NCBI GenBank assembly: GCA_046350615.1
Contig: JAXMAA010000001.1
Span: forward strand, 136,480-200,479
Source of the DNA: Candidatus Saccharimonadales bacterium
Lineage (GTDB): Bacteria > Patescibacteriota > Saccharimonadia > Saccharimonadales > UBA7683
Reading direction: 5' to 3'
DNA length: 64,000 bases
Shown here: positions 1,576 to 51,949 of the stretch, piece after piece
How the letters are laid out: each line of letters opens with the position of its first letter
How positions within the stretch are numbered: the stretch's first letter is position 1
Made by a program: the position numbers and the translations under genes
Notes under the pieces: generated by a model
Told to the model about the DNA's origin: nothing
The model's database searches: none
What the model saw: only the letters and a program-made list of their open reading frames with translations

Positions 1576-2871
1576 CTAATCTTCGTCTTTTTCTTCAGAT
1601 TCTTTGTTCTTCTTGCGTCGGAAGCGGCGCAAAAATGCCGGAACATCATGCTCTGAATCTGACTTTTGCTCATCGTCATCGCTTGCCCAGATATTAGAGC
1701 TTGGTACATCCTCGCTTTTATGAAACGGCGTGTCATCTTCGCCTTTTTCTTCAGCAGTGAGTGAGCCACCCTGAGCATCACTTGCATCCTCGTCCATATT
1801 GATCGTCTCTACTTCTCCCTCAACCTCACCTAATGAACTAGAAAGTTGCGGTTCTTCATCATCCTCATCGGTATCATCATCACCTGCGACTGCGCCACCA
1901 CGCTTTGCAAAATAAGCAGCATCAAAGCCAGTTGCAATTACCGTAATTTCAAGCTTATCGCTCATATCCGGCTTAATAGTTGCACCGAAAATGATATTTG
2001 CATCTGGTGAAACAGCCGCCGTAATAACCTCGGCTGCCTCGTTAACCTCATGCATTGAGAGGTCGTTACCACCAGTAATATTGAATACTACACCACGTGC
2101 ACCATCAATAGAAACCTCAAGTAGTGGCGACTCAATCGCCTGTTGTGCGGCAATAACTGCGCGGTTCTCCCCTGAACCACGGCCAATACCCATCAAAGCC
2201 GAGCCAGCATGGCTCATAACAGATTTTACATCAGCAAAATCAAGGTTGATTAAGCCGTGTTCGGTAATAAGGTCAGAAATGCCTTGCACACCTTGCCGTA
2301 GTACATCATCCGCGACGGTGAATGCTTCAAGTAGTGGCGTGTTCCTATCAATTGTCTGAAGCAAGCGGTCGTTGGGAATAGTAATAAGCGTATCGACATA
2401 CTTAGAAAGATTATCTATTGCAAACTCAGCATTCTTACGACGCTTCTCGCCCTCAAAGGCAAATGGTCGTGTTGCTACGCCAACCGTTAGTATATCCATC
2501 TCCTGAGCCAACTGCGCTACTACGTGTGCCGCACCCGAGCCGGTACCACCACCGGCACCAAGTGTAATAAATACCATATCTGCACCGGTCAGCGCCTCTT
2601 TGATTTCATCTTTAGATTCTTCCGCAGCCTTCTGACCCATGGTGGGGTCTGCACCAGCACCAAGACCACGAGTAGTATCTTTACCAATGTGTATTTTTAC
2701 TGCTGCTTGTGAGTGATACAGAGCCTGGGCATCGGTGTTAATCGCTATAAACTGCACACCCTTAAGGCCAGAATCTACCATCCGGTTCACCGCTGAACCA
2801 CCAGCGCCACCAACCCCCACTACTTTAATAGATGCAAATGCTTGAATATCGGCAGGTTTTACTTCTGGCAC
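1576..2871 (-). CDS. ftsZ: Cell division GTPase FtsZ with an acidic disordered C-terminal tail
   Basis: Carries the [13 protein letters not shown] and [11 protein letters not shown] tubulin signature motifs; 431 aa. Confidence 0.97.
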
Positions 2872-3010
2872 GTTTCCCCCTCACTTACTTATGGTACTCA
2901 GTATATACCGCATGTGCTAGGAAAATCAATAACGCCAAAATTCAGCACCACCACCAGAGGTTACCACGAACACTTTTGGTATACACTGTTAAAAATTTAT
3001 GTGTTCAAAA

Positions 3011-3139
3011 TTTGATATTTATGTAGCATGTATCATTTTGCATGTAGCGTAGATGTAGCAATGACCATGTTTCATGTGTCGGACAAAATGCTACATGAAA
3101 CATCTATGATCAATGGCACATGTTACATGATAAATACGG
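3011..3139 (+). repeat. CATG/ATG-dense module, copy A (ftsA 3' end / ftsA-ftsZ spacer)
   Basis: About 13 ATG within roughly 125 nt. It shares exact words with the copies at 28.3 kb and 51.5 kb: agatgtagcaat, ccatgtttca, catgataaat, catgttacat. Confidence 0.6.
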
Positions 3140-4452
3140 AAACGACCGCTAGAACCCGAAACGGGAGAGGATTTTTGGAAGAGGTTTCGGGCTTGATCTG
3201 CGCTATGCTGCAACCTACCACCTAAGCCACGCCCACCGTAGCTAGTGTCTTCATCTTTATGAACATCGAGGAGCATCAGGCCTACTGCTGTCGCGTATTC
3301 TGGTCGCGCAACCTTCTCTTTTAATCCGCCTATGCTGGCTGGGAAAGCCACGCGAGCAGAAAGTGCCAGCTCCTCTTTCACGCTATCTCATCAATACCCG
3401 GAAGATGCGCCGTACCGCCCACCAGTGTGATACCGCCTGGGATTTTTTTGCTACGATGTATCTTTGCCAACTCTTTATCGACTGATTCAAATAGTTCAAC
3501 CAATCGGGCGGTGATAACCAGCTCAATATCTTTAGTTGGGAAAACGTGTTCACTCCGATTAACCACCACTTTTACATGCTTTGGCCGTGTTTTGCTGCTC
3601 TGCGTTAAAGTACTTGTAATTCTTTTTCACGGCTTCAGCAACTTTGAGATCGGTCCTGAGGCCAATGGCAAGGTCGTTAGTAATATGATTGCCACCAATT
3701 GGTATAACACTCACCAACTGCACATCGCCGTCTTCAATCACAATCAGGTTTGAGGTGGTCGCACCAATATCAAGTACCGCCACACCATTCTCACGCTGCT
3801 CTCGCGAAATCACCGCTTGCGCTGCGCCAAGACTACCCACGCTTAAACGATTAACGCGGGTTTGAGTAGTCTCAACCACTTTTTCAAGATTTTTTAATGC
3901 TGGCGCTGCAACCGTTACCACATGTGCATCAACCTCAAGCCGGGTGCCGCTCATGCCAATGGGGTCTTTAATATTAGCCTGGCCATCGAGATTATAACTA
4001 CGTGGGAAAACGCTCAAAATCTCGTGGTGCTGCGGCAGCTGAAGCACCGTAGCCGCATCTTCAACTCTCAAAAGATCATCCTCGGTAATTTCATTGCCAG
4101 AAACCGCAATGATGCCCTTAGAATCCACACCTTTGATGTGTGATCCGTTAATGTTTGCTGTTCCGCTGCTAATTTGAACCCCTGCCATACGCTCAGCGTT
4201 AGCAATCGCCTGATCAAGCGCTGAAGCCGTTTCAGATATATTGACTACGCTTCCTTTGCGAAATCCAGAGTTTATGGCTTCACCAAGGCCGATAAGTTTT
4301 ACTGTTTGATCTTCTTGTACCAGCCCAATAGTGCATCGGACTGAGGTGGTGCCAATATCAATACCCACCGCTACCTGTTGATGTTCTTGCATAGCTAAAA
4401 GTATACCGCTTGTGGCTACGCTTGTGCAACTGTCGGCTAAGATCAGTTTCAA
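3091..4452 (-). pseudogene. ftsA: Cell division protein FtsA split into three ORFs by two frame disruptions
   Basis: ORFs 3559-4452, 3378-3569 and 3091-3381 together read as one actin-like FtsA (VGIDIGTTSVR...LDIGATTSNL...GGTAHLPGIDEIA / KEELALSARVA). The probable true start is MQEHQQ at 4392. The frame changes near 3600 and near 3380. Confidence 0.85.
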
Positions 4453-5297
4453 GAATCAATTTTATTAATTTTCTCAAAAGCGGCTTGGAGCTGTAACTCC
4501 CGGTTGAACAAGGCTGCAAGCAGCCCGCACCTGTTGTATACATCAAATTCTTGAATTTCCTGAGCAGTAATCTTTTCCACCGTAGTCACGGTAGTTGCCA
4601 AAAGATTGGCCTGATTGTTCGCCAGTTTCTTTAAGTCTGAGCCCAACACTTTTTGTAGCTTTCTTTTACCCACAAACTCCGTAATTCTGAATAAATATTG
4701 ATAGCCATCAGGTCTTGGAATTCTAAAACCACCTTCGTCATCCCGTAGTCTCTCGACTTCTGACATGCCCACTGCCTCTGAAAATTGCTCGACTATCTTT
4801 TCAGAGCTAACATCCATTTGCCTACTTGTAGTCACCACACTCAGAGGACTACTATCCCCTCCGAACGCAGGGACCAATAAAATCTGAACTGTTGCATCCG
4901 AAAAGTCCTCAGTGGGCTCAACCTGCTTCTGCCCAGCGACATACATAGGTACAAGATTTCTTCCATGCACAGCAACATCTTCGACCCAACCGCCATCAAT
5001 GAACTCAGGGTCTATGAATACTCTCTTGTTTTGCTCATTCATATTCTTGAAATAGGTTGATACAGCCCTTCTGTCTATCCATAATATCTGGGTTTCCAGC
5101 ATCCTAGCCTGCTCAAAGCTGATAGCCGGAAAACCAGGTACATGGTCGACATGGCCCAATATGGTGTGCCCATAATCATCTACAAGTTGTCTTGTCTCAG
5201 GTGCCAGTGGGAGAGTAGCGAAAAATGCCTTGATTGCTGTCATACGATCTCGCGCCTCCCTTGCTTGCTGCTCGATTTGGCACTCATCCTCCACCAA
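4449..5297 (-). CDS. Hypothetical protein in the position usually held by ftsQ
   Basis: 282-aa ORF with no TM segment or motif I recognise. The reading frame may continue upstream (see finding at 5298-5440). Confidence 0.5.
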   Translation of the reverse strand: MVEDECQIEQQAREARDRMTAIKAFFATLPLAPETRQLVDDYGHTILGHVDHVPGFPAISFEQARMLETQILWIDRRAVSTYFKNMNEQNKRVFIDPEFIDGGWVEDVAVHGRNLVPMYVAGQKQVEPTEDFSDATVQILLVPAFGGDSSPLSVVTTSRQMDVSSEKIVEQFSEAVGMSEVERLRDDEGGFRIPRPDGYQYLFRITEFVGKRKLQKVLGSDLKKLANNQANLLATTVTTVEKITAQEIQEFDVYNRCGLLAALFNRELQLQAAFEKINKIDS

Positions 5298-7571: not shown

Positions 7572-10500
7572 TTACTTTTTAAATACTACCGAGACGGTTG
7601 TTCCAACATCTGGCGTACTTGTCATAGTGATTGCACCCCCATAGCGCTCAACAAGAAGTCGCACCGTGTAGAGGCTAAGGCCCAGACCCTCGTAATCGTA
7701 TGTTTCGGTTGAGGTGGCTCGCACGAACGGCTGCATGAGGCCATTAAGCTTTTCTGGTGCAATGCCGACACCAGTATCTCGAACCATCAAAGAAAGCCGC
7801 GAAGCGCTGTCTCGGAATACCACCGTTACGCGGCCACCCTCTTTGGTAAATTGCAGGGCGTTTTCTAGTAAAACATGGCAAATGTATCCGAGGTCGCTTG
7901 CGTAAACAGTACTCTGAAGGGTTTCAGGTGCATCAACGTGCAAACCGATGCCCTTTTGTTTGGCGGTGGTTCGCACAGAGCCAAGCAGCGCCCCCACTGC
8001 CACAGTAGTCGGCTGCGAGGCCACCTGCTGAGACTGCAAGATGTTTGCAACTGCAGAAAAAGCTGATCCAACCTTTTTAAGCTGACGAAGACCACCTGCA
8101 AAGCTTTTAGTAAACGTTGGCTCGTGGAGTGTTGCGCCGCTGGTGCTAAAATCTGTAATAGAGCGCATTAGCTGAGTATGAGTACCACCTATAAATTCGT
8201 TGCGATCCTTGAGACTACTACTCGCCACCTGTTCGGAAAGCAGCACCGCATGCGTGAGTTCACGCTGCCGTTGCCATAACTCAAAGCTAGCAATTGCAAC
8301 CAATAATGAAGCTGCTAATACTGCCCCGTGGAAGATCGTCGTACTGCGTGTCACCTCCCATAGTTCCAAGTTTGCAGCACCAGCGACCCCCGCCACCGTT
8401 AAGAAGCTCATGGCAGCTCCAGGAATTGCCACCCAGCGATAAATTGAAAGCTTTTTGAAGGAGGTTGCGCCAGTAATCTTTTGCTTTACTGCTGTCTCTT
8501 TTGCGCCAAGATCTTCTACCAAGTGCTGTACGTAGCCCTTAAAAGCATCTGAGCTGACCTTCAGCGCCTGATAGCCACTCGCCTGCTTATCTTTTACGGC
8601 CTCAAGTGCAAGTGAGATAATAGTAATTGGGGTTGTGAGATAGTGCGTAACGATGTGAACAAATCCATCAATTTGATCTTTGGCTTGTTGCAACGCAAGT
8701 AGACAAGCCTGCAGCGCACGACGTCTCTGTACTTGGAAAAGAGTTTGCACGGCGTAGAATAACACGAGCAAGAGAACAATAATCCACGGTAAACTTTGAG
8801 CAAAATTTGCTACCGCACCATGCAAGACAAAATTATGACGTTCAGCAAGTGTTGAAACATCCAGCTTCTTAAGCTCTTCTAGCGTAACTACGCTCGTCCC
8901 CATTTTATTCACCACAAACGTCAATGGATCTGCTGCAACCTCCACCCCATCGACATCTTCTACCACTACTATAAGCTGATACGTACCATTGGTAGCCTTT
9001 TTGAAGGTAGTCTCATACGGTGCTTGGGTGATTGTAGCAATAAGCTTTCCGTTTATATAGAACCGCGCAGCCTTCACGGGCTTGTTGCCTTTTGTAACAT
9101 CTGCCTTCAAGAGAATGTCTCCACCTGTTGCGTAACCCTGACCCGCTTTTGGTGAAACGATTGTAACCGTTGGCGCCTTACTTGATTCAGACGTGCTTGG
9201 CTTTGGAGTTACTGGCGGTGTTACCAGTGGGCAACTGAGTGTAAATATCACGGCATCGCCATAGGTCTTAACGTTCAATGCGTCCACCGCAAACGCACGG
9301 TAATAGTAGGCTTTGTTGCAGCTCAGGATAAGTTCGGTACTGAAGGCATTGGAGCTGATGGGCAAATTGTTAACGGTATTGCCATAGGCACTGGTTTCAC
9401 CCCACTCAAAGCCAGCCGAAACGAAGTTTCCCGCGCCCGTGCCAGAAACCGAGCCTTTCAGACGTGCCAGAGTACTACTCAATTTATCCGGAGAAAGCGT
9501 ATGCGCTTGCTTGAAAGTATTGCCGCAATCTTTACCGCTATCATTAATGGTCCAGTTGAAGTTAGTCATAATACTTATGCGATCGGCTTCAGCATTACAA
9601 TACGTACTGGTACCGGCATCGAAGACAACATCATCTTGCAGATCCTGCTGATGCCAACTGGCAAGCGTAGCATCATAATTAGCCGTGGAAAGACCGGCTG
9701 GGAAAAGCTGATTGAATGGCTGAGCTGGGCCAATCGGATCTTTGTTGAACATCATCGACATATCTTCAACGTTGGATACGTCCCAGGCCGCAAGTGACTG
9801 ATTAAATGCATCTGCTCCAACAAACATTCCTGACATATTCATCACACTGCTTGTGTTCCAATTGTTTAAGGGCTGGTTGAACTGACGCGCGCCAACAAAC
9901 ATGGATTGCATACTTAGGACGCTGTTTGTGTTCCAATTGTTTAATGGTTGATTAAACGGCGTCGCATAAAACATGCCCCACATGGCCTGCACATTGCTCA
10001 CATCCCAGTTATTGAGGGGTTGGTTGAAAGATGTTGCAAGCAAAAACATACCGCCCATACCTGTCACATTACTAACGTTCCAGTTGTTGAGCGGTTGGTT
10101 GAACATAGTCGCACCATTAAACATCTCCTTCATCCCGCCCATATTGTCGTTTATGCCAACTTGGCTAGTATCCCAAGCATCAAGCGGTTGGTTGAATGCA
10201 GTGGCACCCGCAAACATTTTATCCATTACAGTCACGTTGCCTACATTCCAGTTGTTGAGCGGTTGGTTGAATGCAGTGGCATGGCTGAACATTCTATACA
10301 TTGTGGTTACATTCCCTGTATTCCATGTTGATGTATCTGAGTTAAAAGCAGCGGCTTCGTAAAATGTATATTCCATGTTAGTCACATTGCTTACATCCCA
10401 ATTGTTAAGCGGTTGATTGAATAAGGTAGCCTCATAAAATACAGATTGCATATCAGTTACACCGCTTACATTAAAATTATTAATGGGCTGATTAAAGCTA

Positions 10501-13500
10501 GTTGCTTGATAAAACATGGCTACCATATCAGTAAGGCTATTTGTTTGCCAACCTGAGAGTCCGCCGTTAAAGGCTGATGCTTCGTGGAACATCTGTGTCA
10601 TATCGGCTACGTTTTCAACATTCCAGTTGTCTAAAGACTGGTTAAAGCTGCTCGCATTCGAAAATAATGCAGCCATGCTCTCTACATTACTGGTATCCCA
10701 GTGCTTAATAGGTTGATTAAAGCTTGTGGCGCCAAAAAACATGAGATCCATATCTGTGACGTTCGAGAGATCAGGTGCATCAGTGGCAGGAATAGTCAGG
10801 TTTGTGGCATAAGCAAATGAACAATGCATCGAGCCCCACTGATTAGTTCCCCATTGTTCTACGGTAAGGATTTTTTGAACATCGCCACCCCCACAGAAGT
10901 ATATCTGAGGGAAGTTTCCGATTATCTTCACGGTGTACGTACCTTCTGATGCGTAGGTGTGCGTGGTATCGCCAGTCAGGTCAGCTTCAACATTCCCGTC
11001 GCCCCAATCGATTGTGTAGTTATATCCGCTACCGCTGGTTGGTATGGTAATTTGATTACTGGCGCTTGAGCCTGAGTTATCAGTTTTCCAAGTAGTAATG
11101 AAGGCATTGGTGAAATCTGGTGCAGCAGGGCAATCTTGGCCACCGTCGGTAATTGTCCAGTTGTAATCATTAATAATCGACTGCCGAGCATCTGCGCTGT
11201 AGCAGTATTTAGTAGGCGCTGCGCCGAGGTACACATCGTTCTGAAGATCTTGAGCTGCCCAGCCCGCTAACGTAAAGTCATAATTCTCCATGGAAAGCGC
11301 GGTGTTATTCAAGGCCACGGTTGCCCACCGTACGTTCTGCATATCCCAGCTTGCGAGCGACTGATTAAATGAGGTGGCGCCCGCAAACATACTAACCATG
11401 TTGGTAACGTTACTCATATCCCAATTACTAAGTGATTGATTGAAGCTTGTAGCTCCAGCAAACGTATACGTCGTATATGTCAGACTACTTGTATCCCAGC
11501 TATCAAGCGGTTGGTTGAATGAGCTCGCGCCTCCAAACATCCAACCCATATCCGTAACTTTGCTAGTATCCCAGTTATTTAACGGCTGATTGAATGAGGT
11601 AGCATAGTAAAACATATTACCTGACCACTCTAGGGCCGTCGTATCCCAGTCATTAAGTGGCTGGTTAAAGGTGGTGTTATTTTGGAACATGCCAACCATG
11701 CTTCGTACTTTGCTCGTGTTCCAGTCATTGAGAGGCTGATTAAAAGGAGTGTTGGAAAACATCGTGTTCATACTCTCTACATTGCTGGTATCCCACTGGC
11801 TGATATCTGAGTTAAACGAAGAAGCCAGAATAAACATGTTGTTCATATTGATAACATTACTGGTATCCCAACCATTCAGCGACTGGTTAAACGAGGTGGC
11901 GCCGTTAAACATGCCAGTCATGTTAGTAATCGTGCTGGTATCCCACTGGCTGATATCTGAGTTAAACGAGGTAGCGTTAAAGAACATGTTGAGTAAGCTG
12001 GTAACTCTTGAAAGATCGGGCGCATCTACAGCGTTAATCTGAAGATTAGCCGCGTTCCAGAAGGCAAAATCCATCGAGCGCCATTCGACATCCCCCCACT
12101 GTTCCACCGTTAACAATTTTGCCGGATTACCGGTACTGTTGGCGTTAAAGCTTCTGATATCACCCATAACCCGTATGGTATAGGTACCAGGGCTTGCATA
12201 AGTATGTATGGGGTTACTGCTTGATGTGCTCTGCGTATTTCCATCGCCCCAATCAACTTCATAGCCATTGATCGTACCAAAGGAAAGCCTTACTTGATTC
12301 GAAGCAGTACTGCCGGGGTTATCCGTCTTCCAAGTAGTGATAAAGCCAGTGGCAAAACTTGGTGGGCAGGCATTAGTGGCAAAGGTTTGATCAGATCCGT
12401 AAGTAGTGCCGCCAAGGTTGGTTGCATAGGCTCGGTAATGATAGGTTGTACCACATTCATCTGGTTCAATCTCCGCCTCAATATCACCCAGATTTGTCCC
12501 CAGGTTGCCGGTATCATTACCATATGAAGTAGTTTTACCCCATTGAAAGCCTGTCGCCGAAAGGTCCGTTTCCGAATCCGAAATAGTACCGTGTAGCGTA
12601 GCTTGGTCTTCGGTTATATTATCCGCTACACCAGTTGAAACTACCGGTGGTTCGCCGCAATATTTCCCGCCGTCATAAATCCCCCAGCTAAAATCATTTA
12701 TAAGATGGTTCCGCGCGTTTTCAGCCTGACAGTACTTTATATTACCCGCAGAAAACGGCACATTAGTCCGTGGAGTTTGCTGTGCCCACCCATTTAGCGT
12801 TGCATCGTAGTTAGTGTACGAGATTCCAGAGCTAGATAGCATATTGTGCATCTGATAGACCTGCTCTATATTCCAGCTACCAAGTGATTGATTAAACGCA
12901 GTAGCATCCTGAAAAGCAGAGCTCGTGAAAAGAACTTTGGAGGTATCCCAATTGTTGAGGGGTTGGTTGAATGAGGTGGCACCATTGAATACCCCGCTTA
13001 ACTGAGTAACCTTTGAGGTATTCCAGCTGTTGAGCGACTGATTGAAGGCTGTAGAATTCGAGAACATCCACTCTAAATTTGTGACATTTGAAACGTTCCA
13101 ATTGTTGAGGGGTTGGTTGAATACTGGATTGTCGGCAAGCATGGCTTTCATATTGGTGACACTACCCACATTCCAAGAGTTAATGGGCTGATTAAATGAT
13201 GTGGCAAGTTCAAACATATAATACATATTTGTTACTTTTGAAACATCCCAATCATCAACTGCAGAATCAAATACGGTAGCACCCTGGAACATAGAGCGCA
13301 TAGTAGTGACATTTGAAACGTTCCAGTTGTTTAAGGATCGATTGAATGCTGAAGCATTCTGAAACATACTTTCCGTTGTAGTAACTTTGATTACGTTCCA
13401 ATTGTTGAGGGGTTGGTTGAAAGCCGTAGCACCCTGGAACATAGAGCTCATAGTAGTGACATTTGAAACGTTCCAGTTGTTTAATGGTTGGTTGAAAGCG

Positions 13501-15362
13501 GTGGCTCCACTAAACATATAGGCCATAGTCGTAACACTCTGAGTGTTCCAAGTTGAGATATCTGAATTGAAGTTGGTAGCCATAGAGAACATATCATGTA
13601 CGTTAGTGACTTTAGACACATTCCAATTGTTGAGGGGTTGGTTAAAGCTTGAGCTGCCTTTAAACATCTGTAACATAGTAGTGACATTTGAGACATCCCA
13701 ATTGTTGAGGGGTTGGTTGAAAGCCGTGGCCTGAGAGAACATTGAGGTCATATTGGTTACATTGCCAACATTCCAGCTATTAATATTCTGATTAAAGGCA
13801 GTTGTGCTAAACATATTTGACATATTAGTAACACTCGATGTATTCCAAGTTGAGAGATCTCCGTTGAAATTACGTTGATACGTAAACATATTGCTCATAT
13901 CGGTAACCCCCGAGACGTCCCAGTTGGTTAAGGGCTGATTAAACGCGCCCGGACCATTCCCGAATCCAACGTTGTAGAACATTCTAGATGTATTTTTTAA
14001 CTTATTTGAAGTCGTCCAACTATTGAGCGGTTGGTTGAAGTTATAAGCACCATCGAACATGCCGCTCATAGTCGTGACATTTGAGACATTCCAGTTAGCA
14101 AGAGAGCTATTGAATGCCGACGCACTGTTAAACATATCTGTCATGTTAGTGACATTTGCAACGTTCCAGTTGTTGAGGGGTTGATTAAAGCTTGAATTGC
14201 CTGTGAACATCTGTAACATAGTAGTGACATTTGAAACATCCCAATTATTGAGGGGTTGATTAAATGACGTACCTACAAACATATTCCTCATATCGGTAAC
14301 GTTACTCGTATTCCAACTATTGATATTTTGATTAAACGAATTGTTACCGAAGAACATACTATTCATATCGGTAACATTTGAAACATCCCAATTATTGAGG
14401 GGTTGATTGAAGATAGTGGTTGAATTACAGTTCGCAAAAAGGTTATTCATACTTGTCACATGTGAGACGTCCCAATGATTTATGTTTGAGTTAAACAATC
14501 TAGCTCCGCAAAACATGTAACTCATATCGGTAACGTTACTTAGATCAGGCGCATCCATAGCGTTAACAACCAGCTTTTCAGCCCGACGAAATGCTGCATT
14601 CATTGAAGTCCACTGATTTGTACCCCACTGCTCAACTGAAAGTATCTTTTCTTTATCGCCACTATTATTAAAATAAATCCTTGGAAAGGTGCCTGTAATC
14701 TTTACTGTGTAAGTTCCGCTGGTACCATATGTATGTGTCGCATCACCAGTATGGCCGGAGGTTGTATTTCCATCACCCCAATCAACCGTGTAGTTGTAGC
14801 CCCCGCCGACTGTCGGAATACGAATTTGATTACTGGCGGTAACACCTGAATTATCTGTTTTCCAGGTAGTTACAAACTCGTCGGGCGTATATGCATATAC
14901 GGGATTAACTTGGCTCGCTATGACCGTTGCAAAAATTGCAAAGCTCGCTAACCCATACGAAAGCCAGTATAGTGACTGCTTCCAGTTGTAGAGAAATCTT
15001 GGTAACACTACGACACGTGCGTGATGAAGCGGTGCATAACCAAGCTTCTCATTTTTGAAGGGACGGGCGTGTAGCGTGTAATCAAAATAAAAATAAAGTG
15101 CGGCAGAAACCATCAGCAGACCAAGACTTACCATGGGAAGTAAATTCACTGGCAAGTCAGGGAAGCGAAGGATAAGGTTGCTAAACTGAGTCCGGGCAGA
15201 TCCGCTCAACGCCAAAAAAAGCCACACTCCTGTACCTAAAACAACTGTTGCCAATGGGACAAGCCACAGCCACAAATACACACGAGCTGAGTGCAAAACA
15301 GATGATACTGCGCTATTTTTTTGCTTTTTGATATAACCCATGAGAGCTTTTCTAACGTCCAA
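7572..15362 (-). CDS. Giant (2596 aa) membrane sensor histidine kinase with a BspA/DUF285-type leucine-rich-repeat ectodomain
   Basis: - Three N-terminal TM helices.
- Three super-repeats, each with F(V/I)TTWKTDN...WGDGN...HTY..GTYTV, then 10-25 copies of FxxAxxFNQPLNNW(D/N)VSNVTxMxxMF, then NYDATLxGW...YC...DGGKxC.
- An Ig-like segment and a further TM helix.
- An H-box-like FVHIVTHYLTTPITII, two more TM helices, then HATPase_c (ENALQFT...DTGVGI...GLGLSLY). Confidence 0.85.
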   Translation of the reverse strand: MDVRKALMGYIKKQKNSAVSSVLHSARVYLWLWLVPLATVVLGTGVWLFLALSGSARTQFSNLILRFPDLPVNLLPMVSLGLLMVSAALYFYFDYTLHARPFKNEKLGYAPLHHARVVVLPRFLYNWKQSLYWLSYGLASFAIFATVIASQVNPVYAYTPDEFVTTWKTDNSGVTASNQIRIPTVGGGYNYTVDWGDGNTTSGHTGDATHTYGTSGTYTVKITGTFPRIYFNNSGDKEKILSVEQWGTNQWTSMNAAFRRAEKLVVNAMDAPDLSNVTDMSYMFCGARLFNSNINHWDVSHVTSMNNLFANCNSTTIFNQPLNNWDVSNVTDMNSMFFGNNSFNQNINSWNTSNVTDMRNMFVGTSFNQPLNNWDVSNVTTMLQMFTGNSSFNQPLNNWNVANVTNMTDMFNSASAFNSSLANWNVSNVTTMSGMFDGAYNFNQPLNSWTTSNKLKNTSRMFYNVGFGNGPGAFNQPLTNWDVSGVTDMSNMFTYQRNFNGDLSTWNTSSVTNMSNMFSTTAFNQNINSWNVGNVTNMTSMFSQATAFNQPLNNWDVSNVTTMLQMFKGSSSFNQPLNNWNVSKVTNVHDMFSMATNFNSDISTWNTQSVTTMAYMFSGATAFNQPLNNWNVSNVTTMSSMFQGATAFNQPLNNWNVIKVTTTESMFQNASAFNRSLNNWNVSNVTTMRSMFQGATVFDSAVDDWDVSKVTNMYYMFELATSFNQPINSWNVGSVTNMKAMLADNPVFNQPLNNWNVSNVTNLEWMFSNSTAFNQSLNSWNTSKVTQLSGVFNGATSFNQPLNNWDTSKVLFTSSAFQDATAFNQSLGSWNIEQVYQMHNMLSSSGISYTNYDATLNGWAQQTPRTNVPFSAGNIKYCQAENARNHLINDFSWGIYDGGKYCGEPPVVSTGVADNITEDQATLHGTISDSETDLSATGFQWGKTTSYGNDTGNLGTNLGDIEAEIEPDECGTTYHYRAYATNLGGTTYGSDQTFATNACPPSFATGFITTWKTDNPGSTASNQVRLSFGTINGYEVDWGDGNTQSTSSSNPIHTYASPGTYTIRVMGDIRSFNANSTGNPAKLLTVEQWGDVEWRSMDFAFWNAANLQINAVDAPDLSRVTSLLNMFFNATSFNSDISQWDTSTITNMTGMFNGATSFNQSLNGWDTSNVINMNNMFILASSFNSDISQWDTSNVESMNTMFSNTPFNQPLNDWNTSKVRSMVGMFQNNTTFNQPLNDWDTTALEWSGNMFYYATSFNQPLNNWDTSKVTDMGWMFGGASSFNQPLDSWDTSSLTYTTYTFAGATSFNQSLSNWDMSNVTNMVSMFAGATSFNQSLASWDMQNVRWATVALNNTALSMENYDFTLAGWAAQDLQNDVYLGAAPTKYCYSADARQSIINDYNWTITDGGQDCPAAPDFTNAFITTWKTDNSGSSASNQITIPTSGSGYNYTIDWGDGNVEADLTGDTTHTYASEGTYTVKIIGNFPQIYFCGGGDVQKILTVEQWGTNQWGSMHCSFAYATNLTIPATDAPDLSNVTDMDLMFFGATSFNQPIKHWDTSNVESMAALFSNASSFNQSLDNWNVENVADMTQMFHEASAFNGGLSGWQTNSLTDMVAMFYQATSFNQPINNFNVSGVTDMQSVFYEATLFNQPLNNWDVSNVTNMEYTFYEAAAFNSDTSTWNTGNVTTMYRMFSHATAFNQPLNNWNVGNVTVMDKMFAGATAFNQPLDAWDTSQVGINDNMGGMKEMFNGATMFNQPLNNWNVSNVTGMGGMFLLATSFNQPLNNWDVSNVQAMWGMFYATPFNQPLNNWNTNSVLSMQSMFVGARQFNQPLNNWNTSSVMNMSGMFVGADAFNQSLAAWDVSNVEDMSMMFNKDPIGPAQPFNQLFPAGLSTANYDATLASWHQQDLQDDVVFDAGTSTYCNAEADRISIMTNFNWTINDSGKDCGNTFKQAHTLSPDKLSSTLARLKGSVSGTGAGNFVSAGFEWGETSAYGNTVNNLPISSNAFSTELILSCNKAYYYRAFAVDALNVKTYGDAVIFTLSCPLVTPPVTPKPSTSESSKAPTVTIVSPKAGQGYATGGDILLKADVTKGNKPVKAARFYINGKLIATITQAPYETTFKKATNGTYQLIVVVEDVDGVEVAADPLTFVVNKMGTSVVTLEELKKLDVSTLAERHNFVLHGAVANFAQSLPWIIVLLLVLFYAVQTLFQVQRRRALQACLLALQQAKDQIDGFVHIVTHYLTTPITIISLALEAVKDKQASGYQALKVSSDAFKGYVQHLVEDLGAKETAVKQKITGATSFKKLSIYRWVAIPGAAMSFLTVAGVAGAANLELWEVTRSTTIFHGAVLAASLLVAIASFELWQRQRELTHAVLLSEQVASSSLKDRNEFIGGTHTQLMRSITDFSTSGATLHEPTFTKSFAGGLRQLKKVGSAFSAVANILQSQQVASQPTTVAVGALLGSVRTTAKQKGIGLHVDAPETLQSTVYASDLGYICHVLLENALQFTKEGGRVTVVFRDSASRLSLMVRDTGVGIAPEKLNGLMQPFVRATSTETYDYEGLGLSLYTVRLLVERYGGAITMTSTPDVGTTVSVVFKK

Positions 15363-15879: not shown

Positions 15880-16533
15880 TTATTTCCACTTTAAAATTGC
15901 TTCGTTTAAAATCCGAATGATCGCCTCTTGCTCAGGAACATCACTCTTCTCGTAGTAATGGTCGATTGCAAAGGTATCTTCAACAACTCGGAGCACTTGA
16001 AGCTCATCGCCCAGTACGTGCATCTTATCAACCGCGGCAACGGTAGCAAACGGTGCGGCTATGACTATCTTTTTGGTTTGAACCGGCTTCAAAAAGTTCA
16101 TAGCGGCCACAAGCGAAATACCGCTGAGCAAACCGTCTGAAACCAATATCACATTTCTATTTTGAAGCATTTCAGCATCCACCAAACCACCATCTCCAAG
16201 AAGCCGATTGAGCTCATGCTGCTTTTCCATCTTAAGCTGATCAAGCAGCCCGTGATATTCACTCGTCAGGCCTTCAAGCTCGCCTGTTGAAAAGAGGTCA
16301 TTGTAGGTAAACCCGCCACTTTGGTCAATCGTTCCCAGTTCCGTTCGTTCACCTGGTAAAACAATGTTTTTGGTAAGAAGAAACATAAGCGGGCAATGCA
16401 ACCGAGCCGTGATCTGCGCACCAATAACCACGCCGCCGTCACTCAGCGCAAGCACCACACAGTCTTCAAACCGATAGTGCTGCAGCTGTTTTGCCAACAC
16501 CTTGCCAGCCTCGGTACGCGATGCAAAATACAT
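15880..16533 (-). CDS. Phosphoribosyltransferase-family protein
   Basis: 217 aa. VVLALSDGGVVIGAQIT and NVILVSDGLLSGISL (PRPP-binding-like acidic loop). Confidence 0.65.
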   Translation of the reverse strand: MYFASRTEAGKVLAKQLQHYRFEDCVVLALSDGGVVIGAQITARLHCPLMFLLTKNIVLPGERTELGTIDQSGGFTYNDLFSTGELEGLTSEYHGLLDQLKMEKQHELNRLLGDGGLVDAEMLQNRNVILVSDGLLSGISLVAAMNFLKPVQTKKIVIAAPFATVAAVDKMHVLGDELQVLRVVEDTFAIDHYYEKSDVPEQEAIIRILNEAILKWK

Positions 16534-16580
16534 ACCCTCAGTTTACTACAGTATTTTCAACAACTCGCTATACTAGAGAT

Positions 16581-18505
16581 GTGAAGTACTATCTTGTGTG
16601 TCCAATCGGAGTAATCGGCGGTCGTGAAGACCTCCTTACCTATGGCTCAGAGAGTGAGCTTACTAATGGTGTAATCGTAAAAATTCCGTTTGGCAAACAA
16701 ATCAAGCTTGGCGTCGTTATTAAGGCAACGACTAAGCCATCATTCGTGACCAAGCCTATTACTGCTAGCCTGAGTGAAGTTGTGCCAGCACATCTTCTTG
16801 CACTCAGTTTATGGATGAGTGAATTCTATGCTGTTCGCCGTTCCATGGTACTGCAAACCATGCTGCCAAGCGGCATGGGTAAATCACGTCGCAGCAAAGA
16901 GCGGCCGCACGCGGGTGCCACAAGAACACTTCAGCACCACCCGCTCACGCAAGAGCAATCAGACGCTATTCAAGCTATCAACAGCTCAAGTGCCATCACT
17001 CATCTGCTGCACGGCGTAACCGGCTCTGGAAAAACCCGGGTGTATCAGGAGCTTGCTAAAAAAACACTTGCCGAGCAAAAAAGCGTCTTGGTGCTGGTGC
17101 CAGAAATTGCGTTAACCCCACAGTTGGCAGCAGAGTTTGAAAGCCTCCATCACAATGTTTTGGTACTTCATTCAGGGCTGACTGAAGCTGAACGACACAT
17201 CAATTGGCAGAGACTCAGCACGCGAACCATGGGTTGTATCGGCCCTCGTTCCATATTGTTTTCACCGCTTCATCCATCGGTTTAATCATCGTTGATGAAA
17301 TTGTCATGAAACTGGGTTATGCGCAAGATTCCCAACCAAAATACTGGCGCTCAGAGTAGCAAGAAACTCGCTGAACTTTGCGACGGCACAAAGCTATTAC
17401 TGGGCAGTAAACACCACTTATCACCGATTACTTTTTTGCTCAGAAAAACAAAGACACCGATTATAAAAGTCACCTTACCAGGCCCAACACTCCTCGCGAC
17501 ACAGGTGACATTGCTGATATAAAAGATCGCGGCACATTCGGTTCACATCCGTTATTTAGCAAAATTTTGCTTGAAAAAATGAACAATTCTCTTGTTCAAA
17601 ATGAGCAAATTTTGCTATTCCATAATCGTCGGGGCACGGCCCGTATGAGCCTGTGCGGCAATTGTGGCTGGGTGGCAGAATGTAAAAACTGCCATGTTCC
17701 CATGCGCCTACATCACGACCACTCCGAGCTTCGTTGCCATATATGTGGCCTCAAAGATCTTTTGCCGCAAATCTGTCCGGAATGCAAACACCCCGAAATT
17801 AACTTCAGAGGTTTTGGCAGCAAACGAATCGAAGCCGAGATACGGAAGTTGTATCCCGAGGCAAGTGTTGCACGTTTTGACAGCGACACACCGCTCAAGG
17901 AGCAACTTCATCACCGCTACCAGGAGCTCTATGATAATAAAATTCAAATCATCATCGGCACCCAGGGAATCGCTAAAGGACTCGACCTCCCCAACCTCAA
18001 CACCGTGGGTATAGTACAAGCCGATTCTGAGCTATTCATCCCAGATTTTTCCAGCAATGAGCGTTCGTTCCAGCTTACGACCCAGGTAATAGGAAGGGCT
18101 GGACGGACAGGAGCTCACAGTAGCGTGATCATTCAAACCCTTAATCCAGAACACCCAACTCTGCAATTTGCCAAAAATCAAAACTATGAAGCATTTTACG
18201 CCTTTGAAATTAACGAGCGAGCAGCTGAACACATGCCACCGCATACGTATCTGCTCCATGCTACCACCGGCTACAGTACCGCAGCCGCGGCAGAAACAGC
18301 AGCTAGAAAGCTATGGCAACAGATCAAGCATATTCACCCATCTGTCCATATCCGAGGCCCTTCCCCGGCTTTTCACGAGCACCGAGGCAAACTCTTTTAC
18401 CAACAACTTGTCATTAGCAGCAATAAACGTGGCGATCTTATAAAAATTGTCGAGTCACTTCCTCAACGCTGGCAATTCACGCTCGACCCAATCAACCTAC
18501 TCTGA
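16581..18505 (+). pseudogene. priA: Primosomal helicase PriA with an indel-dense middle section
   Basis: ORF 16491-17285 has LLHGVTGSGKTRVY and LVLVPEIALTPQ. ORF 17567-18505 has the CxxC zinc cluster (CGNCGW..CKNCHVPM..CHICG..CPEC) and the helicase C-domain. Between 17220 and 17560 the DExH region (GLIIVDE...) is readable only by hopping frames. Confidence 0.85.
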
Positions 18506-26014: not shown

Positions 26015-26043
26015 AAGAAGAGTGCTGCAACAGCACTCTTCTC
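26015..26043. terminator. Bidirectional stem-loop between convergent genes
   Basis: aagaagagtgctg-caa-cagcactcttctc, a perfect stem of about 12 bp. Confidence 0.6.
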
Positions 26044-26072
26044 TAAGATCCAAGAACTACAATCTAAGATCT
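26042..26072 (+). repeat. AGATCT-containing 31-nt motif (copy 1)
   Basis: tctaagatccaagaactacaatctaagatct, near-identical to 51919-51949. Both lie at the 3' end of minus-strand genes. Confidence 0.6.
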
Positions 26073-27327: not shown

Positions 27328-27438
27328 TAATTCGGCGCCGTGCTACCTTCCCCTGAAGAGTATTATCGCCGCTACTGGGCTTAGCTTCTGTGTTCGGAAT
27401 GAGAACAGGCGTTTCCCCAGCGCTATGAGCACCGATTG
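27328..27438 (-). rRNA. rrf: 5S rRNA
   Basis: The reverse complement reads ...GGTGCTCATAGCGCTGGGGAAACGCCTGTTCTCATTCCGAACACAGAAGCTAAGCCCAGTAGCGGCGATAATACT...GGTAGCACGGCGCCGAA. Ends are approximate. Confidence 0.85.
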
Positions 27439-27589
27439 AGATATATGTTGTTTTTTAAGCAACATATATCCTGATCGATTCTTATAACGTTCTTTTAAAT
27501 TGAACGTGTGATCGTAATGATACACACAAATAACTGGTCAAACGTTCTCTTGTCTTCATTCGCTAAGGCGAATTCAAACAAGAGAAGCA

Positions 27590-30915
<3,326 letters not shown>

Positions 30916-31746
30916 GGTTTGACTAGTTATTAGTGATTACCAATAACTTGCCGTTGTCCAACTTAAAAGACCAACTAGATTGTTAATGATACTAACTCCA
31001 GATATGATATCTCGCATGAACTTGAGTTCAAATGTAGTCGTTGATTGCTGTCATCCTGAACTTGTTTCAGGATCTAATCAATTTCTCATCTGAACCTGCA
31101 GAGCTAGACAAGTGTATCAAGTAGAGCTTGTTGCAAAGTACGAAGCGCCTCGCAACTCTTTTTGGTAATAAAAAAGCTCTGATGAGATTGTTCACTAATT
31201 GTGGCATATAATCGCCAGAGGTTTCAACTCCTGAAATATCTGTTTCTGCATATCAAAATAGTATCAAATCACTCACCTGGTAACAGTATATCCATATTTG
31301 ATGTAATCAACAACGCTTATGGTTAATTTAATCTGTTAATATGACTTGCCTCCGCTTTTCAACAATGCTATATGTTTTGAGTTTGAACTGAAATGCTAGC
31401 AAAGAGGTTAATAACAGCCCTAGTGGATCACGAACACTGCTAGTGCAGATTAGCGCGCGTTCTGCCCAAGCCATCCTAACCAGTGCTTATTATCATGTAT
31501 AAGGATACTTTTTGCGCTCACCGAAAGCTTCAGTAATTTTCAGTTAAGCTATACCTACGAAAACTTTTCCATTAAATGTAACCAAAAGTTTTCCATAATA
31601 TTAGGATGTATATACCTTATTTCAAATTGATCATGGTGGCTTACTTTGATTAGCCCGGCATCAAGTAAGTTTTGTTCAAATACATTCATACTGTCAAAAG
31701 ATCATAGATTAAATTAATAAAGCAACAAAAAGAATCCTTTCAAATA

Positions 31747-31822
31747 ATGGCGATCCAGGATTTGAACCTGGGAATCCCCGCCATTATCAGTGACGCGCTT
31801 CAACCAACTGAGCTAAACGCCC
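31747..31822 (-). tRNA. tRNA-Ile (GAT), apparently damaged
   Basis: Reverse complement: GGGCGTTTAGCTCAGTTGGTTGAAGCGCGTCACTGATAATGGCGGGGATTCCCAGGTTCAAATCCTGGATCGCCA. The anticodon loop CTGATAA is fine, but the acceptor stem pairs only 5/7 and the D-stem has an extra base. Confidence 0.7.
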
Positions 31823-31852
31823 TCGATTTTGAAAAAGTTCTTATTATGTAAA

Positions 31853-31930
31853 TGGTGGAGACACAGGGACTGAACCCCGGACTCCCGCCTTGCAAAGGCG
31901 CAGTGCTCTAGCCAATCGAGCTATGTCCCC
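31853..31930 (-). tRNA. tRNA-Ala (TGC) with encoded CCA
   Basis: Reverse complement: GGGGACATAGCTCGATTGGCTAGAGCACTGCGCCTTTGCAAGGCGGGAGTCCGGGGTTCAGTCCCTGTGTCTCCACCA. Confidence 0.85.
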
Positions 31931-32596
31931 TCGTCGGAATTTTCGCTGATCTTGTTTTTCTTTCAGAAAAACTTGATCTTAAGCTATATTCTCCTCCTCA
32001 CTTAAAAAAGTCGCTGCGCTTTGTTTTTAACCGAAGAAATCTTCAATACGAACAGATGCTATTCTATCTTATTCATTGATTATTCGCAAGCGGACGGCCA
32101 AGTAAATTAAACGTAATGGGAATTTTCGGACAAATTTACTTGGTTTAGCTGTCATTGGTGCTGGAGGCTTATCGCTTATAAAGAACTATCAGGTTGCAAA
32201 TACAATGCCGCTTCGGTGGCTAGAACAGAAGCTTGGCTCAGCAGCTCATACAGCATCTGGAAGATCATCTCGGTTCTTCTGGCATTTATTGGGTTTACTG
32301 TTATGTTCGGCTTTGCAGATAATCTGCTCACTTTCCCATTAATGATCACAACATGATTACGTTGCTGTTGGTTCCAATTGAGAATGAGATAAAGATAATC
32401 ATTAAATTAAAATCGCTCATTACGGGCGATTTTGTTATTAAAAACTGAGTAGTGCAACGTCGTAGTTAAGTAAAAGGTGAATCTAAGTTCAATCCTGAAA
32501 GGATAGAATTGTTTTATAGATCTCCATTAAAACAATCGAGACCGACCTCGCTCATAAAGCTAGATTGCTCATAACTATGGCTAGAACTCCCTTGCG

Positions 32597-34055
32597 AAAG
32601 GAGGTAATCCATCCCCACCTTCCGTAGATACCTTGTTACGACTTAACCCCAGTTATCCCCCCACCTTAGGCTCAATAAATTAGACTCGGGTGTTGGTGAC
32701 TTCATGCATTTGACGGGCGGTGTGTACAAGACCTTGAACGTATTCACCGTAGTGTGCCGACTCACGATTACTAGTGATTCCATTGGGCGCAGGCGAGTTT
32801 CAGCTCGCAATCCGAATCCGCCGGGGGACTTGGCTTACGGACGAGTTCCCCTCGCGGGTTGGTTGCCCTTGCACTTACGCATTGTAGCGTTTTTCTAGCC
32901 CAGGACGTAAGGGTAATAATGACCTGACATCATCCCCTCCTTCCCTCCCCGTTACCGAGGCAGTCTGTTTAGAAAAATCCGGCACCGAAATATAAGGGTT
33001 GCGCTCGTTGAAGGACTTAAACCTAACATCTCACGATACGAGCTGACGCTTGGCTATGCAACACTCAGTCACTTGTCCATTAAAGCAATTTTCTTGCTTT
33101 CGCAGAAATTCCAAGGATGTCAAGCCCTGGTAAGGTTCTTCGCTTATCATCGAATTAAAGAACACGCTCCACTACTTGTGCGGGTCCCCGCTTGGTTCCT
33201 TTGAGTTTTAATCTTGCGACTGGTAATTCTGCGCGGATGCTTAACGCGTTAGCTTCTGCTACTAGAAGGGTCGATACTCCTAACAGCTAGCATCCATCGT
33301 TTACGGCGCATCAATGGCATCTAATCCCGTTCGCCTCACGCTTTCGTGCCTCAGTGTCAGAAATGAGCCAGTCACCTGCCTACGCCATTGGTGTTCCTCC
33401 TTATATCTACGGATTTCACTCCTACACAAGAAATTCCAGTGACCTCTCTCATTCTCGAGCTGTGCCAGTTTGAATAATGTGTTGATGGTTGAGCCACCAG
33501 ATTTCACTATTCACTTTAGTTTAGCCACCACGCAACTCTTTACGCCCAGTAAATCGGATAACGCTTGATCCTCCAGGCGACCGCGCTGCTGCACGGAGTT
33601 GGGCTGATCCTTATCTGGCGTGCTTACCGTCATATTTCGCACATAAAAGCAGTTTATAATCCGAAAACCTTCATCCTGCACGCGGTGTTGCTCCATCAGG
33701 TTTGCGCCCATTGTGGAAAATTCCTAACTGCCTCCTGTAGGAGTCTGACCGTGTCTCTAGTTCCAGTGTGGCTGATCATCCTCTCAAATCAGCTGAAGAT
33801 CGTCGCCTTGGTAAGCCTTTACTCTCACCAAACTAGCTAATCTTACGCGGGGCTCTTCTCAAACTGAAGCTTTAATCCGAAGACTATATGCGGTATTAGA
33901 CACCGTTTCCAGGTTATCCCTCAGTTTGGGGTAGATTCCACGTGTTACCTTACCTGTCCGCTGTCGTGTACTCTTCGAAGGGGCCTACCGCTCGACTTGT
34001 ATGTTTTAGGTACGCCGCCAGCGTTCATCCGGAGCTTTGTGATCAAACTCTCCAT
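32597..34055 (-). rRNA. rrs: 16S rRNA (recognisable, but universal sites are altered)
   Basis: Reverse complement starts AGAGTTTGATC and ends ...AAGTCGTAACAAGGTATCTACGGAAGGTGGGGATGGATTACCTCCTTTC. TGTACACACCGCCCGTCA is intact, while the 515, 785, 907 and 1050-1100 regions carry indels and substitutions. Confidence 0.85.
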
Positions 34056-34247
34056 AAAAAAGTGTTTAATTCTAACTTCGTCGAAATACTGAACATCTCA
34101 AATTATTAAACATCAAAACTTAACGTTGATGCTGTATCATCAGTTTTTAAAGTGAGCCTCTCTCTGTAAGAATTAAGAATGATTGCCCCCAGATAAGACC
34201 AATGGTATTACTCGTAATCTCGCATAAAAGATCAGGATAGTACTGCA

Positions 34248-34610
34248 TCAATTGTATGAAAACAGATCGATCCTGTCAACAGTAAAGGTGGGCCTTTTGC
34301 TGTAATTTATGTAACAATAAACACAAGCACAGGTACAACTACACCTATCAGCAGGCCCGTACACCTCGAATGGTGTGTGTCCATTAGATTGATGAATTAT
34401 CATCTTAGGTAGGTGATCTTTTTTTAAAAAATTCCAGGCACAATAGCTGTGGTATTCTGAGCGTGCTCGCCACATCCGTATGCGTGTTACCGATGGCACT
34501 GGCACATAATAATCGCAGCTGAATACAGGTAACCAAATTCGACTTTTTGAGCCCAACCTATAGGCCAAACCGTACAGAGCGAAACAATCACCGGCATGCG
34601 CGCTCGGCAT
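34248..34610 (-). pseudogene. Remnant of a radical-SAM protein (N-terminal fragment only)
   Basis: ...HTPFEVYGPADRCSCTCACVYCYINYSKR contains a CxxxCxxC cluster. The ORF stops 17 codons later, about 190 nt before the 16S 5' end. Confidence 0.4.
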
Positions 34611-34729
34611 GCCTCCTGAACGATAGATATACCGCTAATCCCAATCTTTCTTGGTTATTCCCATAAGAACTATCTTGGCGATCTGTGCCATTATATCCAC
34701 GTAAAGATAGGATTACAAAGTATGCGTAA

Positions 34730-37212: not shown

Positions 37213-37218
37213 ACTTAA

Positions 37219-51313: not shown

Positions 51314-51803
51314 GCTAGATCACTAGGTGGTCGCCCCGATTCATAGGGGAGGAAAGTCCGGGCAGCACAGGACAAGGCAGTTGCTAACGGCAACCGGGGG
51401 CAACCCTAGGGAAAGTGCCACAGAAACGAAACCGCCTGCTGTGTGGAACACAGCATTTAACAATTTACATGTAGCACGTAACAGAGATTTAACAGATGCC
51501 ATGTAACATTTATGATGGACCCATTTGATACATGAAAAACGATACATCTTTGATTAGTGATACATGCTCCATGATAAATGTCGTGCTCCGCACGGCGGGT
51601 AAGGGTGAAACGAGTGAGGTAAGAGCTCACAGTCGGCCGTGGTGACACGGAAGAGAGGTAAACCCTGCCTGCTGCAAGGAGATTTGGTTGCACTTAAGGC
51701 TGTCCGCCGTAATCAGATCACAAGAACCGCTCGATTTGTCCAGCAATGGGCCAACTAGATAGATGATCACCCTCGACAGAACCCGGCTTATCGGTGGTCT
51801 AGC
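51314..51803 (+). ncRNA. rnpB: RNase P RNA (bacterial type A) with an insertion of about 130 nt in P12
   Basis: GAGGAAAGTCCGGGC, GGGAAAGTGCCACAGAAA, GGTAAGGGTGAAA, GGTAAGAGC and ACAGAACCCGGCTTA. P1 pairs gctagatcac (51314) with gtggtctagc (51794). Confidence 0.9.
51456..51586 (+). repeat. CATG/ATG-dense module, copy C, inside RNase P RNA P12
   Basis: Three gatacat direct repeats. gatacatctttgat (51541-51554) is identical to the 23S copy, and catgataaat (51570-51579) is identical to copy A. Confidence 0.6.
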
Positions 51804-51812
51804 ACCCGGTTT

Positions 51813-51949
51813 AGATCTCAGATCTTAGTTCTTAGAGGGTTAGAATCTTAAGACAAGGCGTTGTACTCAAGCTACAAAATGACTAATACGGTTGGACCTT
51901 AAGAAAGTTATCACGAATTCTAAGATCTAAGAACTACGCTCTAAGATCT
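51813..51949. repeat. Inverted AGATCT-motif pair between rnpB and the Nudix-RNase H gene
   Basis: agatctcagatcttagttcttagag (51813-51837) is the inverted partner of tctaagatctaagaactacgctctaagatct (51919-51949). Confidence 0.55.

Follow-up and report, generated by a model that had tools for sequence, protein, structure and literature searches.

Homologous heptamer-array hairpins in the ftsA-ftsZ spacer and in stable-RNA genes of Candidatus Saccharibacteria

What is the stretch dense in ATG and CATG that lies between ftsA and ftsZ in this Candidatus Saccharibacteria genome, and why do its words recur elsewhere? We analyzed a 64-kb stretch of the genome (the window), in which a first-pass annotation had placed this feature between the two cell division genes and had quoted words shared with sites at 28.3 kb and 51.5 kb. 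The location is correct, and all of the quoted words are present at these sites. Using a set of ten 7-mers (ATGTAGC, ATGTATC, ATGTTAC, ATGTTTC, ATGTAAC and their complements), we counted 9 matches per 150 nt at 3.0 kb and 6 each at 28.3 kb and 51.4 kb, compared with a window mean of 0.17 and 3 at the next-best place. The density is therefore real and far from chance. Two independent spaced patterns, one fixing 23 bases and the other 25, both matched exactly three places in the window and none of 100 shuffles. Together, these data reveal that the same ATG/CATG-rich module is present in the window at three places only (3011-3140, 28286-28436 and 51445-51588). As the words are confined to these three discrete ~130-nt places, the recurrence that had been described is upheld, and the idea that such words are simply common in AT-rich spacers fails. 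The first of the three, module A, has the following setting:

1576-2871, minus strand: ftsZ (Tubulin and FtsZ_C domains)
3003-3008, minus strand: TTGAAC box that opens the block upstream of ftsZ conserved in relatives
3011-3140, plus strand (family orientation): module A, an imperfect-palindrome heptamer-array repeat in the ftsA-ftsZ spacer (k-mer density, spaced patterns, fold, nhmmer)
3149-3151, minus strand: true ftsA stop codon, TAG (alignment with relatives L003, L007 and L008, and translation)
~3150-4452, minus strand: ftsA (SHS2_FTSA and FtsA domains)

Module A is intergenic, as its first base is ~10 nt past the true ftsA stop and its last is a few bases short of the TTGAAC box. The apparent ftsA ORF extends to 3091, into the module, because the assembly lacks one A of an A6 run; in relatives, alignment reveals that FtsA regularly ends in ...LFQKILSRFGF followed by the stop. 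Since the overlap is due to a 1-nt homopolymer deletion, we rejected an in-frame insertion into ftsA in the style of a Rickettsia palindromic element. An alternative genetic code for the broken ftsA was also rejected, as its fragments do not share a frame and stop codons are used in the ordinary way. We likewise ruled out an intrinsic terminator or promoter within module A, since consensus matches are absent and nothing is terminator-like. At ftsA-ftsZ, module A probably has no dedicated function and at most forms an RNA hairpin between both genes. Relevance to cell-division biology is unlikely, and this copy resembles a passenger.

The other two window copies lie within genes for stable RNAs:

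27588-30908, minus strand: 23S rRNA gene hosting module B, low-scoring and indel-rich in the window assembly
28286-28436, minus strand: module B, at the tip of the 23S rRNA helix 79 expansion, E. coli ~2200-2223 (Rfam, alignments with L094, L096 and E. coli, nhmmer)
51315-51806, plus strand: RNase P RNA gene (bacterial type A) hosting module C, 492 nt compared with 337-357 nt in relatives
51445-51588, plus strand: module C, in the extended tip of RNase P RNA helix P12; whole insert versus relatives ~51438-51592 (Rfam alignment)

As modules B and C are inside stable-RNA genes, the range of what the module can be changes. Copy B is part of a 191-nt insert where the Rfam alignment expects a 15-nt hairpin loop. 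Alignment with an E. coli 23S gene places this insert at E. coli 2181-2216, in helix 79, with the helix number drawn from the E. coli secondary structure. The E. coli 23S gene used for numbering (L099, from ST2747) is canonical up to position 2447. This gene is 3055 nt long and contains a ~154-nt internal duplication after 2447, with the GATAACAGGCTGATACC motif at both 2447 and 2601.

Two further copies come from other assemblies. A search of a metagenome collection with the second spaced pattern identified L096 and L097, contigs of different projects, in which the module (copy D) is at the same 23S helix as B; both 23S genes are intact, scoring 2542 and 2527 bits. Copy E occupies the helix-6 loop of the 16S rRNA of L094, where 172 nt are found in place of the expected 16 nt. 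In this copy ATGTAGC has turned into ATTTAGC, such that no CATG is left, yet the heptamer hairpin is retained. The window's own 16S gene has no helix-6 insert. The known copies thus number five: the three of the window, that of L096/L097 and that of L094. Two of the five came from loci chosen for being rRNA operons, which bears on any bias toward stable RNAs. We also noted that the two tRNA genes between 16S and 23S in L094 (2823-3014) are reported on the strand opposite the rRNAs, while tRNA-Ile and tRNA-Ala of the window are on the same strand as the rRNAs.

All five copies are colinear over ~130 nt, with 66% column identity in a five-way alignment. When each copy was left out in turn, a profile of the other four recovered it with E = 1e-10 to 1e-17 in 1.16 Mb (3.5e-14 on the plus strand for module A). 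Each copy also matches the family profile on the reverse strand, with E = 1e-8 to 1e-12 (2.4e-8 for module A), and is therefore an imperfect palindrome. Non-repetitive landmarks, consisting of AGAG/GTAG, AGATnTAnCA, CATGTnnCA, ACATCTnTGAT and the CATGATAAAT end, follow one another in constant order across copies. The first-pass annotation had proposed arrays of short sites rather than simple copies, on the grounds that word order differs. Colinearity contradicts this proposal, and there is no rearrangement. Instead, word order appears to change because unit variants (TAG, TAT, TTT, TAA) fill homologous positions and because the element is itself palindromic.

Module A can be written as two arrays of heptamers split at ATG:

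3021-3074, plus strand: left-arm heptamer array, ATGTAGC, ATGTATC, ATTTTGC, ATGTAGC gtag ATGTAGC a ATGACC, ATGTTTC
3088-3135, plus strand: right-arm array, ATGCTAC, ATGAAAC atct ATGATCA, ATGGCAC, ATGTTAC, ATGATAA, largely complementary to the left arm

Tandem Repeats Finder reported ATGTAGC in 6.1 copies, with a period of 7, at 3021-3060. The spacings between successive ATGs in module A are 7, 14, 11, 8, 6, 7, 14, 7, 11, 7, 7 and 7 nt. Thus, although ATG does recur closely, as had been described, the form given (every 6-11 nt) was inexact, the pattern being a 7-nt period with 4-nt interruptions. Autocorrelation at lag 7 was 0.49 in A, 0.43-0.49 in four copies and 0.36 in B, compared with 0.27 ± 0.04 in shuffles. 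CATG is spaced by 7, 11 or 14 nt because the arms are inverted arrays of degenerate ATGTAGC-like heptamers, and it recurs on both arms because it spans the point where one unit meets the next (...GC|ATG...), which is self-complementary.

The consensus folds into a single long hairpin of 34 pairs, in which 82.9% of cells are paired. When the 3′ partners were slid by 1-3 columns as a control, pairing fell to 22-44%. Seven pairs are changed on both sides, compared with 3.4 expected in shuffles, and 6 of 500 shuffles attained seven. Fold z-scores were -4.4 for C, -6.2 for D, -8.3 for E and about -1.9 for both A and B; the hairpins of D and E, whose host genes are intact, are thus highly stable. 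The outer 13 bp of module A pair, giving it the terminal inverted repeat looked for in miniature inverted-repeat elements (MITEs). With respect to transcription, A is antisense and both C and D are sense, which fits a DNA element and not an oriented RNA motif. In Rfam, no covariance model matched the module at E <= 10 beyond chance-level matches, and at gathering thresholds only the host genes were found. On this basis we rejected membership of a known RNA family, group I and group II introns included.

Homologues of FtsZ, ComM (48649-50154) and S1 place the host in Candidatus Saccharibacteria (TM7), within the candidate phyla radiation (CPR), and it was compared with relatives. The clearest contrast between a filled and an empty site is in RNase P RNA. 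This RNA is 337-357 nt long and has no insert in 10 of 10 relatives. Outside P12, L012 and the window have nearly identical RNase P RNAs, and the P12 of L012 is a tiny CCC-TTCG-GGG hairpin. At ftsA-ftsZ, where the first-pass annotation had proposed comparing relatives, L007 and L008 have ~100 nt of unrelated sequence and L003-L006 have two extra genes. These last genomes are the closest by FtsZ (94% identity), and their extra genes, a MarR-family gene and a 70-aa gene on the opposite strand, are absent from the window and from L007/L008. The ftsA-ftsZ spacer is a hot spot for change. Helix 79 of 23S is expanded across the lineage with a genome-specific tip, which is AT-rich and ~75 nt in L094 and is the module in the window. 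Since short-read contigs of close relatives end at the rRNA operon, the 23S comparison used a 713-kb JGI contig. As a separate difference from relatives, the window encodes a giant 2596-aa ORF (7572-15362, minus strand) in which DUF285 repeats form 16 stretches (period of 75 nt in the DNA), accompanied by PKD/Big domains and, at the C terminus, a HATPase_c domain, at a position where relatives have an unrelated or shorter gene.

Wider searches returned few copies. The first strict pattern (23 fixed bases) had 0 matches in 185,579 species-representative genomes, metagenome contigs and viral contigs, and the second (25 fixed bases) had 0 matches in viral contigs. In JGI metagenomes, the two strict patterns combined yielded a single orthologous site. 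When modules A and C were compared with plasmids and phages by BLAST, there were 0 matches. A profile search of ~90 loci from relatives (ftsZ, ComM/RNase P and S1 neighbourhoods) detected no copy outside rRNA genes.

A scan for lag-7 periodicity, together with a four-way 23S alignment, detected sibling hairpins built from other heptamers (CAATTTT, GAAATAT, TCAATGA, GACTGGA), which some genomes have and others do not:

E. coli ~547 (helix 25): sibling hairpin in L094 and L096, absent from the window
E. coli ~1182 (helix 45): sibling hairpin in L096 only
E. coli ~1473-1507: sibling hairpin in L096 only
E. coli ~1706 (helix 63): sibling hairpin in the 23S of relatives
23S-5S spacer of L094: sibling hairpin

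The intact 23S gene of L096 carries at least three copies of one sibling family with the centre CAATTGCGGAGCAATTTCCA, in both orientations (2920-3045, 4272-4354 and 4578-4690). These are at approximately E. coli 547, 1507 and 1706, and one pair among them shows 82% complementarity across 83 nt. Another heptamer hairpin of this gene (3838-3937) is at ~1182. Relatives also carry inverted heptamer arrays made of GACTGGA/TCAATCC, GATTTTA and GAAATAT/CATATTC, located in the 23S-5S spacer, within 23S helix 25 and beside the rRNA operon (L094 7037-7136, 7249-7348 and 4318-4495; L090 300-399). Similar arrays are found in other CPR loci, namely L054, L082, L079 and L030. In its spacers, the window itself contains a second heptamer repeat, TCTAAGA/TCTAAGA/ACTACGC/TCTAAGA/TCT, at 51813-51836 with 51919-51949, and at 26042-26072. 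Two direct copies of this repeat are 90% identical, and an inverted partner is directly 3′ of the RNase P RNA gene; the copy at 26.04 kb stands after a GC-rich, terminator-like hairpin. Just downstream of nrdR (920-990) is another heptamer-periodic hairpin, CGTTATA/CGAAATA/CGTTATA/CCCTATA, flanked by the module-like words GTAGATGTAG ... ACATCT and scoring below the profile threshold.

Parts of the window show signs of homopolymer-type consensus error (27330-39184, also 16491-18505 and 3378-3569). Compared with a relative, the rRNA operon scores poorly (LSU 1559 versus 2554 bits, SSU 862 versus 1487) and has deletions in universally conserved runs. The gyrB and gyrA genes (~34.2-39.2 kb) are broken into small ORFs, priA is in two pieces, and ftsA is frameshifted, once in the A6 run. 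The degraded rRNA operon and gyrase region looks like homopolymer consensus error of a long-read bin, the alternative being real decay.

The homology of the copies, their palindromic heptamer anatomy, their positions at helix tips and their presence or absence between relatives are observed. A model that we consider reasonably probable is that module A is one copy of a dispersed, non-coding ~130-nt hairpin repeat family of the Candidatus Saccharibacteria clade, which is selfish or resembles rRNA intervening sequences (IVS), and which has no regulatory role. Among the candidates that the first-pass annotation had listed, a non-autonomous mobile element is thus the one best supported. In its favor are the block homology of the copies, their occurrence in either orientation to transcription, their absence from some relatives, the module in two contigs of separate metagenome projects, and the repeated sibling hairpins inside a single 23S gene. 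In each copy, one arm is a degenerate run of ATGTAGC-like heptamers with 4-nt AGAG/GTAG interruptions and the other arm its complement, such that single-stranded DNA or RNA of the element folds into a long hairpin. Copies may persist where the hairpin is harmless, as at peripheral helix tips of stable RNAs (23S helix 79, 16S helix 6, RNase P P12), where a helix would merely be lengthened. An intergenic spacer, such as the 130 nt between the ftsA stop and the region upstream of ftsZ, would be the other tolerated kind of place. We infer that the family spreads as selfish DNA, like MITEs, REPINs or rRNA IVS, and heptamer slippage may later remodel the arms. In rRNA, the element could either be retained as an expansion segment or be excised by RNase III.

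Several observations count against the dispersed-repeat model. The known copies are only five, and the strict-pattern searches added little. We recognized no target-site duplication at A, B or C in comparison with relatives, the flanks being too divergent to fix the ends to the base. The window has no transposase with matching ends, and no Y1/HUH transposase was found among its ORFs. The sole insertion sequence in the window is a compact IS256/Mutator-family element (46855-47956) with a 337-aa transposase ORF (46938-47951) and perfect 32-nt inverted repeats (46855-46886 and 47925-47956). As these ends are unrelated to the module, we rejected this element as an autonomous partner. Since the copies are ~35% diverged, we make no claim of recent mobility. 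In addition, helix 79 and the ftsA-ftsZ spacer of relatives hold other sequence of similar length and are not clean empty sites, and the majority of known copies sit in stable-RNA genes, which random insertion plus tolerance does not obviously predict.

The main rival dispenses with transposition. Heptamers would slip in place at helix tips and in spacers, with both arms expanding together, and ectopic gene conversion would homogenize the copies, much as concerted evolution of "cryptically simple" expansion segments has been proposed for eukaryotic rRNA. The strong 7-nt periodicity favors this explanation, as do the differing number of units among copies, the abundance within the same rRNA operons and spacers of hairpins whose heptamer units differ, and our failure to find a target duplication or a transposase. 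Moreover, according to a summary of a survey, heptamers outnumber all other long simple repeats in many prokaryotic genomes, an abundance that has been attributed to polymerase slippage (PMC4679880). However, P12 is short and contains no heptamer seed in ten relatives, which means that the copy in RNase P RNA must have arrived as one block. Slippage also does not account for the non-repetitive features that every copy shares in one order, namely the AGAG interruption, ACATCTNTGAT and the terminal CATGATAAAT, and gene conversion requires prior homology at the recipient site. We regard this explanation as unlikely, while giving it serious weight. Less likely still is a functional RNA module, which would serve either RNase III, as a processing site at which 23S, 16S and RNase P RNA are cut into pieces and the ftsA message is parted from that of ftsZ, or an RNA-binding protein peculiar to the lineage, as its docking helix. 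Its copies are indeed long and partly compensated helices that are retained in intact 23S and 16S genes of independent assemblies, and siblings at helices 25 and 45 are at the classical sites of IVS excised by RNase III (PMC4990558). Yet with respect to transcription A runs opposite to C and D, the insert is missing from RNase P RNA, 16S and ftsA-ftsZ in close relatives, and copy E retains no CATG. In addition, the helices have many mismatches, no Rfam family matches them, and module A has no terminator-like feature.

A protein-binding array had also been among the candidates for module A. In this explanation, the CATG heptamers would be DNA sites for a regulator or for a nucleoid or partition protein, as might be suggested by short sites at regular spacing and by three window copies ~23-25 kb apart. 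Two of these three copies, however, are within essential RNA genes, the sites are degenerate, and relatives lack arrays at the same places. Copy E, which keeps the architecture with no CATG at all, weakens the proposal further, and we consider it very improbable. We assign an even smaller chance to an assembly or consensus artefact. Although the window comes from an error-rich long-read bin and is full of homopolymer-type indels (as in the degraded rRNA operon and the broken ftsA, priA, gyrB and gyrA), the same module recurs in the 713-kb JGI contig and in two metagenome assemblies that are independent of each other and have intact 23S genes, and the RNase P gene surrounding copy C is clean.

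A bolder form of the dispersed-repeat model, which we hold to be rather doubtful, is that the family and its siblings are a protein-less mobile element that specifically invades hairpin loops of structured-RNA genes with very high transcription, namely those for 23S, 16S and RNase P RNA. It could enter by way of hairpins in single-stranded DNA that transcription exposes, or by way of an RNA intermediate. Were this true, a substantial share of the rRNA "insertions" of CPR bacteria would be such elements and not introns, and there would be a bacterial route to expansion segments like those of eukaryotic rRNA.

These findings bear on how CPR RNA genes are read. According to a passage in PMC9297842 (citing Brown 2015), CPR 16S and 23S genes often carry insertions of at least 100 nt, and CPR RNase P RNAs are described as having large helix extensions (PMC8172020). 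Such insertions have mostly been interpreted as introns, frequently ones that contain homing-endonuclease ORFs, or have been left uncharacterised (PMC9297842, PMC8172020). We found no report in the literature on Saccharibacteria and CPR of a repeat family common to rRNA, RNase P RNA and spacers. One homologous heptamer hairpin family would tie together rRNA intervening or expansion sequences, the extended RNase P helices of CPR bacteria and small spacer repeats, offering a testable origin for bacterial rRNA intervening sequences. It also cautions that not every CPR rRNA insertion is an intron. Inserts in 16S V1 and 23S domain V bear on 16S- and 23S-based identification of Saccharibacteria, and the P12 insert bears on finding RNase P RNA genes.

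How does the module compare with known systems? MITEs are short, non-coding, dispersed repeats, as are palindromic repeats such as REPINs (REP doublets moved by RAYT transposases), Correia elements and Rickettsia palindromic elements. Like these, the module is short, non-coding and dispersed, forms hairpins, occurs in either orientation and is present or absent between relatives. The dispersed copies expected of a MITE are found (three in 64 kb, plus those of L094 and L096/L097), as are the expected empty sites in RNase P RNA and 16S. Unlike these elements, the module has five known copies, and its bias toward helix tips of stable RNAs is atypical. The GTAG within its ATGTAGC units recalls the 5′ GTAG of REP sequences, and the element is likewise an inverted doublet, in this case of arrays. 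Its units, however, are heptamer arrays and not REP palindromes, and copies lie within RNA genes. In contrast to Rickettsia palindromic elements, the module is not in frame within a protein gene.

[quoted passage not shown] In heterocyst-forming species, STRR heptamers lie within P12 of RNase P RNA (Vioque 1997, as cited in a passage of PMC2858038). The module similarly consists of tandem heptamers that occur both inside P12 of RNase P RNA and in intergenic DNA. It differs from STRRs in having ATGTAGC-like units and a host, Saccharibacteria, from an unrelated phylum, and is thus an analogue and not a member. Furthermore, it is the whole ~130-nt arrangement that is conserved between places and not the unit alone, and the module is also found in 23S and 16S rRNA.

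The hosts of rRNA IVS include Salmonella, Leptospira, Campylobacter and Coxiella. IVS are defined by their excision from the rRNA precursor by RNase III without religation, which leaves fragmented rRNA, and are found in 23S helices 9, 25 and 45 (PMC4990558). Their origin has been unclear since 1990, and a transposition remnant is suspected (PMC4990558). Unlike IVS, the module is in 23S helix 79 and 16S helix 6 and not in helices 9, 25 or 45, where only the siblings of L094 and L096 (at ~547 and 1182) are found. The module family also extends to RNase P RNA and an intergenic spacer, is built from heptamer arrays, and its excision by RNase III is putative. Like IVS, however, it adds 100-200 nt at the tip of a peripheral rRNA helix (191 nt in B, 172 nt in E, and in D at the same helix as B), its complementary termini form a long stem, and it is sporadic among relatives.
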